Positions 40,515 through 51,138 of a stretch of DNA of 64,000 nt are shown here, piece after piece. How positions within the stretch are numbered: position 1 is the stretch's first letter; each line of letters starts with the position of its first letter. The DNA comes from Alphaproteobacteria bacterium (GTDB lineage: Bacteria; Pseudomonadota; Alphaproteobacteria; RF32; CAG-239), in assembly GCA_017626035.1 (NCBI GenBank), contig JAGAJR010000016.1, positions 41,272-105,271 of the forward strand. Direction: 5' to 3'. Below the pieces are notes generated by a model. That model ran no database searches. It saw only the letters and a program-made list of their open reading frames with translations, and was not told the DNA's origin. The position numbers were made by a program, and so were the translations under genes.

Positions 40515-42890
40515 ATGGAAAAGAATAAAAGTAAGAATCTGCTGGCCCTGTTAGGAGGCATTTTGCTGATGTCGTTTCCTTTGAAAGCACAAGCACAGTG
40601 GCCGACATTCGATGTGGCTGCCATTAAACAAGCCATTACCTCCAATATTGAATTGGTAAAACAATCAAAAATCGTAACGGATGCAACGTCTTTGGCCGGA
40701 AAAATCAATTCCGGCATCGGCGATGCCAAAGCCAGTATGTCTAAGTATGCCGGCGATAACCTGGAAAAAGCCAAGGAAAAAGCAGAAAAAGTCAAGAAAG
40801 AAAAAAGTCGTCTTGATAAGATGAAAGAAAAATATAACAAAGCTAAAGAATATGCCGAGAAGAAAAAGCAAGAGTTGGAAGAGGCAAAAGCCTGGGCTGA
40901 AGAGCAAAAGTCCAAAGCGATGGCTCTAAAAGACGAAGCTATGAGTTATAAAGATTTGGCAACAGAGGGAGTTGGTGCTGTTAAAGATTTTGCCGCTGAT
41001 GTTAAAAGTACGGCTTCCGACGCAACCAGTATGGCCGGAGATTTGAAAAGTGCTGCCGGAGCCAAATTGGGTGCGGTCAAGAGTCAGGCCGGTTTGGATA
41101 CGGCGGATGCCGTTGATAATGATATTTATGACCAGCTTCAAATCACTTCGGATGATAAAGTTTATGGCGATGACGATTTTGGTATGGCAAACCTTGATCC
41201 TGAACTTCAAGGCCAGATTAATCAACAGATTGCCGGTAAGTTTATGGAGGATATCCGCGGAGCCGAAAACGAAAGAGATGCGGCTTTGGCGAGATTGGAA
41301 GAATTGCGTGCTAACGGTGAAGATACTTCCGAAGCTGAACAGGCTTTGGCTGAGGCAGAAAGTCGTCTGAGAGATATGAAACAGGGATATCAACAGGTTT
41401 TGGATGACAAAGGCATAGAACTTCCGAACGGAGAAAGATTCTTTACGAAGGGCGGAAATGCGGTTAATCAGAATGCGTATGAGGAAATGGCTCGTGCCGC
41501 AGCTGCCAATAACGGCGGTGTGGATATGGATGCCATGATGCAGGATGAATATGAGAAAGCCGCCAGAGCAGCAGGAAGTATGGGTGTTTCTGCAGATTTC
41601 AAAGTTGATAAGAAAGCGGCTGTTGAAGCGGTTGGAGATGTCGCTCCGGTTAAAGCTTTGAGCAAAGCAGACGGAATAAGCAAGGCTGCCGTTGCTGAAA
41701 TGCCGAAAAAACTTGATAAAGCAGGTGTAAGTTTGAATAAGGCGGAAGTTGCGGCCCCGGCATTGTCAAAAGCAAGCGTTGCGGCTCCTCTTGCAATGGA
41801 GAAAAAGGCCGCTCCGAGTGTTAATAAAAACGGACAGCCGAAAGTTTCAGGAAGAAAGGCCTTCCAAAAACGTTCGGATATCGGCTTGGAAAGTAAGAAT
41901 AAATTTGTGAGTCGTTCCTTTTCCGAAACAGTCAGTTTTGCTGATGTAGCCGTCGGAATGACAGATAATACGTTTGACGGGGAATTTGTCGCGTCCGAAA
42001 GTTTTTTTGATTATTGCGGTTTCAATGCCAAAGATGCCAATGAGGAAAATATTACCGATTGCATTAAAAAGATTATTGAAGCCGCAGAAAGTGAAAACCA
42101 ACAGGATGCCGCTACTGCTCAGGCATTGCTCAGTGATTTTGGTTCGGAAACGGTTATCGGTATGGCTGCCAAAGGGATGAAAAATCGTAAAGACGTTGCC
42201 GGAAACGATGAAAAACAGGATAAATTGAATGAAACGGCCGGAAGTGCAGATAACCAAAGGGATGATACAGCGGCTTTGGTCATGAATGATAAAGAGCTTC
42301 AGGTCTTAGGCGATGGCTTATTGGGAGTATATGCCTCCAAATTGATTTTGGACAGTTTTTCCAATCTGTCATTTGTGAAAGTAACGGATACCGAAGAAGT
42401 AATGCAGGATCCGGAACATGATATGGTTGATGCAACATTTGACGGCAAATTTGCCGGAGCTCCTGCAATGTATGAAATTTGTGAGTTTAGTGCCAAGGAT
42501 GTTTCCGAGGATAGTGCGGAAGTAACCGAGTGTATGGAAAAGATAGTTCAAGATAAGAACGATCCTGATATGAAAATTGCCGCAGAGGGATTGGAAAATT
42601 ATAATAAAGTCAGAGGAGGAACCAGTATCGGTATGGTTCCCGTGGCTTTGGATGCTATAAAAGAAGTGGCATATAATGATGCCAAAGTCGAAAAGATTGA
42701 AGAGGAAGCCGGAGATGCCAAAAACGCTACGGCGGATGTCGGAGCATTAACGCTTTCCAATAAAGAGATTTTGGTTAAATTCAATAAAGTATTAGATATT
42801 TTTTCAGCTCAACTGCTTCTTGATTCCCTTTCAAATGTGGGCGGATTAAACAGTCAGGCTCTACCTTCGGCAGTGGGAGAACAGGGATGA
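40515..42890 (+). CDS. Large secreted coiled-coil protein with VirB5/TrbJ-like N-terminus and a duplicated C-terminal domain
   Basis: Signal peptide ending KAQAQ. The mature N-terminus WPTFDVAAIKQAITSNIELVKQ resembles the (I/V)PV.D..........Q start of VirB5/TrbJ. There are two tandem ~140-aa Cys-containing domains (~41961-42385 and ~42425-42850). ATG 40515 follows GGTGGAGG. Confidence 0.6.
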   Translation: MEKNKSKNLLALLGGILLMSFPLKAQAQWPTFDVAAIKQAITSNIELVKQSKIVTDATSLAGKINSGIGDAKASMSKYAGDNLEKAKEKAEKVKKEKSRLDKMKEKYNKAKEYAEKKKQELEEAKAWAEEQKSKAMALKDEAMSYKDLATEGVGAVKDFAADVKSTASDATSMAGDLKSAAGAKLGAVKSQAGLDTADAVDNDIYDQLQITSDDKVYGDDDFGMANLDPELQGQINQQIAGKFMEDIRGAENERDAALARLEELRANGEDTSEAEQALAEAESRLRDMKQGYQQVLDDKGIELPNGERFFTKGGNAVNQNAYEEMARAAAANNGGVDMDAMMQDEYEKAARAAGSMGVSADFKVDKKAAVEAVGDVAPVKALSKADGISKAAVAEMPKKLDKAGVSLNKAEVAAPALSKASVAAPLAMEKKAAPSVNKNGQPKVSGRKAFQKRSDIGLESKNKFVSRSFSETVSFADVAVGMTDNTFDGEFVASESFFDYCGFNAKDANEENITDCIKKIIEAAESENQQDAATAQALLSDFGSETVIGMAAKGMKNRKDVAGNDEKQDKLNETAGSADNQRDDTAALVMNDKELQVLGDGLLGVYASKLILDSFSNLSFVKVTDTEEVMQDPEHDMVDATFDGKFAGAPAMYEICEFSAKDVSEDSAEVTECMEKIVQDKNDPDMKIAAEGLENYNKVRGGTSIGMVPVALDAIKEVAYNDAKVEKIEEEAGDAKNATADVGALTLSNKEILVKFNKVLDIFSAQLLLDSLSNVGGLNSQALPSAVGEQG

Positions 42891-51138: not shown

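Follow-up and report, generated by a model that had tools for sequence, protein, structure and literature searches.

Four predicted exported proteins, partly VirB5-like, between virB4 and virB8 of a type IV secretion operon from gut Alphaproteobacteria

The window analysed here is a 64-kb stretch (64,000 nucleotides, nt) from an Alphaproteobacteria bacterium (assembly GCA_017626035.1, contig JAGAJR010000016.1, positions 41,272 to 105,271 of the forward strand), which carries a chromosomal VirB-type type IV secretion system (T4SS) operon at 34.1-63.9 kb on the plus strand. Between virB4 and virB8 of this operon, a preceding sequence-only reading had placed open reading frames (ORFs) of ~790, 262, 629 and 1855 amino acids (aa), and all four are present at those coordinates, as genes called here A (791 aa), B (262 aa), C (629 aa) and D (1855 aa). 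Gene A can start at GTG 40464 (808 aa) or, preceded by a GGAGG Shine-Dalgarno sequence, at ATG 40515 (791 aa), and a Shine-Dalgarno-like motif stands before each of the four starts. A and B, as well as C and D, are joined by an ATGA overlap, the remaining junctions measuring 9-13 nt. Judged by their sequence, A to D are intact and translationally coupled within the virB2-virB11 operon, and are predicted to be co-transcribed. What is new here is the composition of this cassette, which appears to hold one VirB5-like protein (B), one VirB5-headed chimera (A), one pilin-associated protein (C) and one large family (D).

Hydropathy was evaluated on the Kyte-Doolittle scale with a 19-aa window and a cut-off of 1.6. 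In each of the four proteins the N-terminal segment is the only one that reaches this value, the next peaks being 1.13, 1.23, 0.75 and 1.21 for A, B, C and D, respectively, in agreement with the earlier proposal that each has a signal peptide and no further hydrophobic helix. Cleavage of the AXA type is predicted at KAQA/QWPTFD in A, NAAA/DIEAP in B, SVSA/MIKFD in C and NAWA/FGLLPPGP in D, and the residues that follow the cleavage sites are conserved among orthologues. No Pfam or NCBIfam family was recognised in A-D, where the searches returned coiled-coil-type noise only. The TrbL/VirB6 family (PF04610) had no match in A-D at E <=0.1 nor in 83 cassette orthologues at E <=0.05, with positive controls at 6.7e-5 and 4.2e-5, so that a VirB6/TrbL homologue within these ORFs, the finding that had been expected to overturn the sequence-only reading, gave no signal. 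Likewise the VirB5 family (PF07996) had no match in A-D or in the 83 orthologues, a related Erythrobacter VirB5 scoring 6.8e-7. Regarding the coiled-coil character that had been attributed to all four proteins, heptad-like windows (a home-made measure) cover 18%, 11%, 23% and 18% of A, B, C and D, respectively, compared to ~5% in shuffled sequences. The attribution fits in part: B is not above its own shuffles, and the rest of A-D is largely low-complexity linker or conserved globular domain.

Short modules are shared within the cassette. A and C have in common a 38-aa module that is 76% identical between them (A 41515-41630, C 45323-45436; pattern GVDxDAMxQDEYEKAARAAGSxGV..DF.xDKK). Two short motifs, SGRK[SA]F and x[LI]xFA[QD], turn up repeatedly in variable parts of A, C and D (in D around aa 300 and 1010) as well as of their orthologues, and in one related locus, L022 (L numbers denote the loci compared), a different module is common to A and B. 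Whole-protein homology among A, B and C was considered and discarded, as BLAST single-linkage joins them via short shared modules only.

The minor pilins of the VirB5/TrbJ type (PF07996; TraC of pKM101, TrwJ of R388) are likewise Sec-exported and encoded directly after virB4. We aligned the cassette proteins by hhalign with a VirB5 profile made of four sequences from related T4SSs and anchored by the PF07996 match of the Erythrobacter protein (6.8e-7). A 31-sequence alignment of B matched this profile with a probability of 83% and an E value of 9e-6 over 199 colinear columns; B resembles VirB5 in size (262 aa, for a VirB5 range of ~220-270 aa), has a signal peptide and appears to be colinear with VirB5 over the whole mature protein. 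Columns 38-90 of A matched columns 21-73 of VirB5 (84% probability, 53 columns). A has a signal peptide and the position after virB4, and C and D have the signal peptide alone. Protein A is laid out as a signal peptide, a VirB5/TrbJ-like N-terminal helix (mature start QWPTFDVAAIKQAI), a long Ala/Lys/Glu-rich linker and a C-terminal duplication; the helical N-terminus with a start of the P-x-[IVF]-D type is what it has in common with VirB5/TrbJ. The duplication is a tandem repeat of a ~140-aa module (aa ~481-618 and ~636-775), with a Smith-Waterman score of 230 compared to a shuffle mean of 38 +/- 7. The A family comprises 527 database matches, typically of 666 aa, and the homologue search with B yielded 8 proteins. 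A match of B to a solved structure was also sought by sequence and rejected, as it returned tropomyosin-type coiled-coil noise only. We infer that B is the best candidate for the VirB5/TrbJ orthologue and that A joins an N-terminal helix of the VirB5 type to a long spacer and a distal module present in duplicate. The earlier view that only the first ORF is VirB5-like at its N-terminus has thus to be abandoned, the best full-length VirB5 match being B. The cassette nevertheless differs from VirB5/TrbJ in that A, C and D exceed it in size 3- to 8-fold, in that 4-7 genes stand here in place of one, and in that no Pfam threshold is reached, the similarity being known from sequence.

Protein C consists of a signal peptide, a coiled-coil-rich region and a weakly VirB5-like motif in its C-terminal half. 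A natural fusion of C to VirB2 exists in a roe-deer/ruminant lineage (L017 8340-9989, which corresponds to L039 8319-9965). Over aa 5-440 the L017 fusion protein matches C (28% identity, 3e-29), and over aa 464-541 it matches the 114-aa VirB2 of the window (55% identity, 1e-24); there is no separate virB2 upstream of virB3 in the L017/L039 locus. This natural fusion suggests that C works with the pilin.

In protein D the signal peptide is followed by three conserved blocks, at aa 28-266, 530-811 and 1264-1855. The spacers between them vary and are of low complexity or coiled-coil character, and the blocks hold dozens of invariant residues, cysteines among them. D falls into 41 clusters at 90% identity, and its C-terminal block into 208 clusters at 50% identity; this block is always C-terminal, in proteins of ~1050-1850 aa when full-length. 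The N-terminal block is a separate 230-aa gene in L049/L050 and is absent from some distant family members. Within the species of the window, D is polymorphic in length (1855 compared to 1686-1689 aa). Of all cassette members it is the best conserved, and its gene invariably closes the cassette ahead of virB8. D represents a new three-block family, with no sequence match and no recognisable fold. Two candidate relationships were rejected: a sequence-profile comparison of D with solved structures (PDB sequences) gave tropomyosin-type coiled-coil noise only, and homology to protein X of the plasmid relatives described below had an hhalign probability of <1%. It should be noted that the C-terminus of most D orthologues reads PYCA[AS]Y or PFCAAY (window 51121-51138), which resembles a CaaX box. 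Other D orthologues extend beyond the cysteine of this terminal motif, and the invariant cysteine near the end of D is more likely, from the sequences, to form a disulfide than to belong to a CaaX box.

Members of the D family are present in 37 GTDB species-representative genomes, all of them metagenome-assembled genomes (MAGs) of gut, rumen or faecal Alphaproteobacteria, with titles that include 'uncultured Azospirillum sp.', Ca. Scatocola and the MGBC, UMGS, HGM, MGYG-HGUT and RGIG series; we take these 37 MAGs to be placed by GTDB in the order RF32. The clade, which is uncultured and little known, comes from human, mouse, chicken, ruminant and horse samples. Among the 37 species loci, 34 reach virB4, and 31 of these have 4-7 exported-protein genes between virB4 and virB8a, the remaining 3 ending before virB8a. 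The order virB4, cassette, virB8a, lipoprotein, virB8b, virB9 is kept in 31 of the 34. Counted with the signal peptide, the cassette orthologues of the 34 loci have 0-3 hydrophobic peaks and in no case a VirB6-like array; three peaks are seen only in the D orthologue of L018/L042, where they apparently reflect a Gly/Ala-rich stretch. An identical VirB4 was found on 22 metagenome contigs among those read, and the gene order is the same on all. One contig, L040 (CAVIWQ010000001.1), is labelled 'Bacteroidaceae bacterium' and carries an Alphaproteobacteria-type locus whose VirB4 is 78% identical to that of the window; it is probably mis-binned.

Across species, the global identity of A-D is 17-39% where that of VirB4 is 76-91% and that of VirB8 and VirB9 56-82%. 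Compared with the nearest species (L020), the ratio of nonsynonymous to synonymous substitution rates (dN/dS) is 0.10 for A, 0.06 for B, 0.12 for C and 0.06 for D, and 0.01-0.05 for VirB4, VirB8a, VirB8b and VirB9, at dS of ~0.6-1.1. With ratios of 0.06-0.12 against 0.01-0.05, A-D are under purifying selection, yet their amino-acid sequences change several-fold faster than those of the core. These results bear on the possibility that the locus is a decaying or domesticated remnant whose ORFs are fortuitously open repetitive filler, a reading that could appeal to the lack of family matches, to the amount of low-complexity sequence and to the absence of VirB6, VirD4, VirB1 and relaxase genes nearby. 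More than 20 independent contigs and 37 species, however, carry A-D open and unbroken, the low dN/dS of A-D is observed at dS of ~1, the core genes are very conserved (VirB4 76-99%), and D keeps its dozens of invariant residues, cysteines included. Purifying selection together with synteny effectively refutes the remnant, and A-D are not the frameshifted genes that the sequence-only reading had named as a result that would undo it.

The operon that surrounds the cassette (Table 1) encodes homologues of VirB2, B3, B4, B8, B9, B10 and B11 in operon order, as in VirB-type systems (MPF_T-like; MPF, mating-pair formation), with Pfam matches to TrbC, VirB3 (weak), CagE_TrbE_VirB, VirB8 (twice), CagX, TrbI and T2SSE. 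The 99-aa VirB3-like protein, for which Pfam is weak, matches the annotated VirB3 of Microvirga by blastp at 2e-9. Several components are expanded. An 856-aa protein consists of a signal peptide, ~320 Ala/Lys/Glu-rich residues, a VirB2-type hairpin and a Gly/Asn/Thr-rich tail of ~445 aa; the hairpin (aa 355-411) is 40% identical to the 114-aa VirB2 by blastp (5e-13) and coincides with transmembrane (TM) peaks at aa 360 and 392, and the orthologues in related loci measure 725-998 aa. A giant protein with an embedded pilin domain is unusual. The two VirB8 proteins are paralogues (33% identical) and are kept as a pair in all related loci. The VirB9/CagX homologue (567 aa, 52961-54664) has a Gly-rich linker and a C-terminal SPOR domain (Pfam E 0.0027, found in the orthologues too), SPOR being a peptidoglycan-binding domain. 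VirB10 (1475 aa) has a signal-peptide-like start, no clear TM anchor and ~1100 aa of beta-flower repeats followed by the TrbI domain, and the 1286-aa protein that precedes it has an N-terminal TM anchor and beta-flower repeats; together (54661-62951) they look like a split, greatly expanded VirB10.

Table 1. Genes of the T4SS operon in the window and of the separate VirB6 module in plasmid relatives
Feature	Sequence	Position	Strand	Evidence
Two VirB2/TrbC pilin genes (114 aa, 162 aa)	window	34113..34972	+	Pfam TrbC 3e-10 and 7e-5
856-aa protein with embedded VirB2 two-helix hairpin	window	34984..37554	+	blastp, TM peaks
virB3-like gene (99 aa) and virB4 (810 aa; 38005-40437)	window	37716..40437	+	Pfam, blastp
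Gene A	window	40515..42890	+	ORF, Shine-Dalgarno
Gene B	window	42887..43675	+	ORF
Gene C	window	43685..45574	+	ORF
Gene D	window	45571..51138	+	ORF
virB8a (51152-51910), VirB7-like lipoprotein, virB8b (52224-52958)	window	51152..52958	+	Pfam VirB8 2e-16 and 9e-25
VirB7-like lipoprotein, 62 aa, between both virB8 genes, motif LKLSPCACMQ	window	52015-52203	+	
VirB9-SPOR, 1286-aa beta-flower protein, VirB10, VirB11	window	52961..63934	+	Pfam
VirB6 three-gene module (126-137-aa soluble, ~100-aa 2-TM and 436-441-aa TrbL-like proteins)	L058	36390-39885		
VirB6 three-gene module (as above)	L064	6180-8191		

The first 34 kb of the window are chromosomal, with rpsA, rsmE, a DnaJ-like gene, a kinase/PP2C/VWA trio and a Fic gene. 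A type IVb pilus cluster lies on the minus strand (18276-33864) and encodes PilS/bundlin-type pilins, T2SSE, T2SSF, PilO, a secretin and TcpQ; it is flanked by the trio of Ser/Thr kinase, PP2C phosphatase and VWA proteins and by the Fic-domain protein (14101-16983, 20891-21982). This pilus cluster adjoins the T4SS wherever a locus reaches far enough (L017 1-2454; L057 31749-35266), and in L017/L039 a T2SSE-T2SSF pair stands immediately 5' of virB3 on the same strand. On the other side, 3' of virB11, conserved neighbours without family match were found on the minus strand of L009 (11024-19028): a 725-aa Cys-rich secreted protein, a 423-aa lipoprotein and a 988-aa hyper-acidic protein with EEWEWEYEE repeats and a poly-Lys tract, which may be cargo or accessory proteins.

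The slot between virB5 and virB7/virB8 is where VirB6/TrbL (PF04610) is usually encoded, and operon position is all that A-D have in common with it: VirB6/TrbL has at least three and usually at least five TM helices, whereas A-D have none past the signal peptide and show no sequence similarity to it. We looked for a polytopic VirB6 in ~84 kb of this genome, that is, the window and 10 kb on each side. No real gene with at least four TM peaks exists in the window, the lone such ORF being an antisense shadow (27402-27980), and the flanking 10 kb, past virB11 on one side and ahead of the window on the other, contain no polytopic gene either, which bears out the earlier statement that no polytopic VirB6 is visible. 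The same Kyte-Doolittle scan sees 6-8 peaks in the true VirB6 of L015 and L058. Extended to +/-10 kb in 47 clade loci (1.08 Mb), the scan detected no polytopic VirB6-like gene; tblastn of three VirB6 proteins, two small module proteins, VirD4 and a relaxase against these 1.08 Mb returned nothing, and a search of JGI metagenomes with a VirB6 alignment for a VirB6 of the clade brought up unrelated lineages only. We read the absence of a polytopic VirB6 from the slot as a lineage trait.

The nearest plasmid relatives of the system were identified through VirB4, which is 39.5% identical in Microvirga sp. VF16 (pMVF16-3), 34.6% in Erythrobacter aureus YH-07 and 34.1% in Sphingosinicella sp. BN140058 (p1). 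A lipoprotein with the motif [ST]PCAC is common to the window and all three plasmid operons, the Sphingosinicella one being unannotated, and by its sequence it is a VirB7-like marker of this T4SS lineage. The VirB4 identity of 34-40% together with this SPCAC lipoprotein argues that the plasmid systems and that of the window share ancestry. The virB4-virB8 slot of the plasmids encodes VirB5 and an exported protein of 422-460 aa, called here X, and no VirB6. X matches VirB5 with an hhalign probability of 95%, its signal peptides become visible after correction of the start codons, and it has no detectable similarity to C or D. In the more distant Paracaedimonas systems (VirB4 30%), by contrast, a polytopic TrbL-like gene lies within the slot. 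The plasmid systems differ from that of the window in being of the conjugative type, with a MobA/MobL relaxase and VirD4 beside the operon, and in having one VirB2, one VirB8 and a VirB10 of normal size; MOB-suite types these plasmids as non-mobilizable or merely mobilizable. Like the window, Sphingosinicella p1 carries type IV pilus genes, T2SSE and T2SSF included.

In the three plasmids, a region of +/-14-20 kb is without any polytopic gene; the conclusion that the whole lineage is VirB6-less was nevertheless overturned by an unlinked TrbL-like gene in Sphingosinicella and Erythrobacter. Sphingosinicella p1 (347 kb, read whole) encodes a 441-aa protein with six TM peaks and a PF04610 match at 4.2e-5, which is 21% identical to the Paracaedimonas VirB6 (E 3e-6), the PF04610 score of both being at the same level. 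Its gene belongs to a three-gene module located 17 kb past virD4 and adjoined by an SLT transglycosylase. The same module lies ~19 kb from the operon in Erythrobacter, where the VirB6-like protein, annotated 'type IV secretion system protein', is 45.7% identical to that of Sphingosinicella; two of the three plasmids thus have virB6 at a distance of 17-19 kb from the operon. In Microvirga, a 228-aa protein with three TM segments was examined as a short VirB6 and rejected for lack of similarity to VirB6. A metagenomic relative, L065, also has a VirB6-like gene, with no VirB4, VirB8, VirB9, VirB10 or VirB11 within 8 kb. By analogy with these relatives, this branch of T4SSs would have lost virB6 from the main operon before the gut clade came by the system, whether through acquisition or inheritance. 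As the closest plasmid relatives keep virB6 apart from the operon, we consider it rather probable that virB6 of the gut clade is also unlinked, in a small separate operon elsewhere in the genome. Between the two explanations offered by the sequence-only reading, a VirB6 encoded elsewhere or a different inner-membrane complex, the relatives therefore favour the former by analogy.

A true VirB6-less operon would be notable, since VirB6 is reported as conserved in essentially all T4SSs (PMC12857230) and every MPF class is described with a VirB6 homologue or a polytopic analogue with at least three TM domains (PMC4027160). In a machine of this kind, A-D, as soluble VirB5-derived and novel proteins, would build the stalk or the pilus-nucleation platform and would be anchored via the VirB2-hairpin proteins, the main candidates being D, which stands exactly in the virB6 position, the 856-aa protein and the C-VirB2 fusion. 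The lack of any polytopic gene from -44 kb to +10 kb of the operon, and within +/-10 kb in the 47 loci, agrees with such a machine, as do the conservation of D and its constant place before virB8. Large proteins with a VirB2 membrane hairpin could anchor in the membrane, and the VirB6 of R388 itself has two N-proximal helices in the membrane and its bulk in the periplasm (PMC12857230). Nevertheless, the closest relatives have the same slot layout and keep a canonical TrbL/VirB6 elsewhere, a VirB6 homologue or polytopic analogue is known from every MPF class (PMC4027160; PMC12857230), D has no VirB6 similarity by sequence or in its one usable model, and the inspection covers ~84 kb of the genome. 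On balance we regard a machine truly devoid of VirB6 as unlikely.

Neither VirD4 nor a relaxase was found in the window and the 10 kb that follow it, or in any of the 47 loci. Two other systems resemble that of the window in part. The Cag system of Helicobacter pylori is also an expanded machine: its VirB10 (CagY) is giant and bears repeats, and it has several additional exported proteins associated with the pilus or surface. Cag differs in having a polytopic VirB6 homologue (CagW) and a coupling protein, and to our knowledge none of its proteins is related in sequence to A-D. The Trw system of Bartonella has multiplied and diversified surface components (VirB2 and VirB5 paralogues) and no coupling protein, but there genes of canonical size are amplified and the VirB6 copies are kept in the operon. 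Our literature search found no paper on the T4SS of this gut clade. A third comparison is offered by the Ptl system of Bordetella pertussis, a T4SS without VirD4 that exports periplasmic cargo delivered by Sec (PMC12857230). By the same route, A-D could be Sec-dependent cargo moved by the T4SS from the periplasm to the outside, as pertussis toxin is by Ptl, and act as surface adhesins or effectors. The signal peptides on all four proteins and the lack of VirD4 in the ~84 kb inspected and in the 47 loci are what such cargo would entail, and fast divergence, length polymorphism and shuffled short modules fit proteins facing a host or target. Ptl differs, however, in that its cargo genes lie outside the structural genes, in that it keeps VirB6 and in that it lacks VirB5, whereas A-D sit in the middle of the structural operon and are translationally coupled. 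Moreover, B and the N-terminus of A resemble the structural protein VirB5, C is fused to a pilin in one lineage, no toxin or enzyme domain was detected with Pfam or NCBIfam, and a coupling protein could be encoded elsewhere. We therefore find the cargo explanation quite improbable; the option of substrates raised by the sequence-only reading stays live to that extent, with no coupling protein nearby.

Our preferred explanation, which we hold with evenly balanced confidence, is that A-D form a lineage-specific, rapidly diverging, partly VirB5-derived module of Sec-exported structural proteins that would act in the stalk, at the pilus tip or as adhesin. The four proteins would cross the inner membrane via Sec and presumably assemble on or around the periplasmic stalk, and then at the tip or on the surface of the VirB2 filament. 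The position of VirB5 atop the stalk would be occupied by B and by the N-terminal helix of A, both being carried outward as VirB2 polymerises. A, C and D would contribute their spacers and distal modules to an extended and variable layer, a tip or sheath adapted for contacting target cells. Seen in this way, the cassette would correspond to the VirB5 tip/adhesin layer in an enlarged and variable form. This mechanism fits the expansion of VirB2, VirB9 and VirB10, seen in the hairpins within 725-998-aa proteins, in VirB9-SPOR and in the beta-flower repeats, and it fits the several-fold faster evolution of the cassette; rapid evolution is also what is expected of a pilus-tip protein of the VirB5/TrbJ type. 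The earlier suggestion of pilus-tip, adhesin or sheath components thereby gains support of an indirect kind, from the VirB5-like B and A, the C-VirB2 fusion and the fast evolution.

Several points weigh against this structural explanation. Neither A-D nor the 83 orthologues, scanned singly, gave a Pfam or NCBIfam match. The hhalign comparisons were run without secondary structure, with a four-sequence VirB5 profile and on helical, low-complexity proteins, and those of C (30%) and of the N-terminal block of D (10%) with VirB5 are weak. An AlphaFold2 model of D aa 1240-1855 (predicted local distance difference test, pLDDT, 72; alpha+beta) had nothing better than E 0.3 by Foldseek against PDB and BFVD, and the model of aa 1-830 (pLDDT 45) is too poor to use. 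No VirB6 homologue of the clade was found in the 1.08 Mb of loci, its location elsewhere being an analogy, and the localisation and assembly proposed for A-D are wholly deduced.

Taken together, these results define at least one large new protein family (D, with its 208 clusters). The VirB5-like size series, the pilin fusions, the split giant VirB10 and VirB9-SPOR make this T4SS a test case for the remodelling of the periplasmic and extracellular parts of such machines. Operon-based T4SS callers would score systems with virB6 outside the main operon as incomplete. If VirB6 were truly absent, it would be dispensable, and the model in which a VirB6 pentamer nucleates the pilus would need an alternative. 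As the T4SS is chromosomal in 37 species representatives, with near-identical core genes, it is probably central to how this clade contacts other cells or its host.

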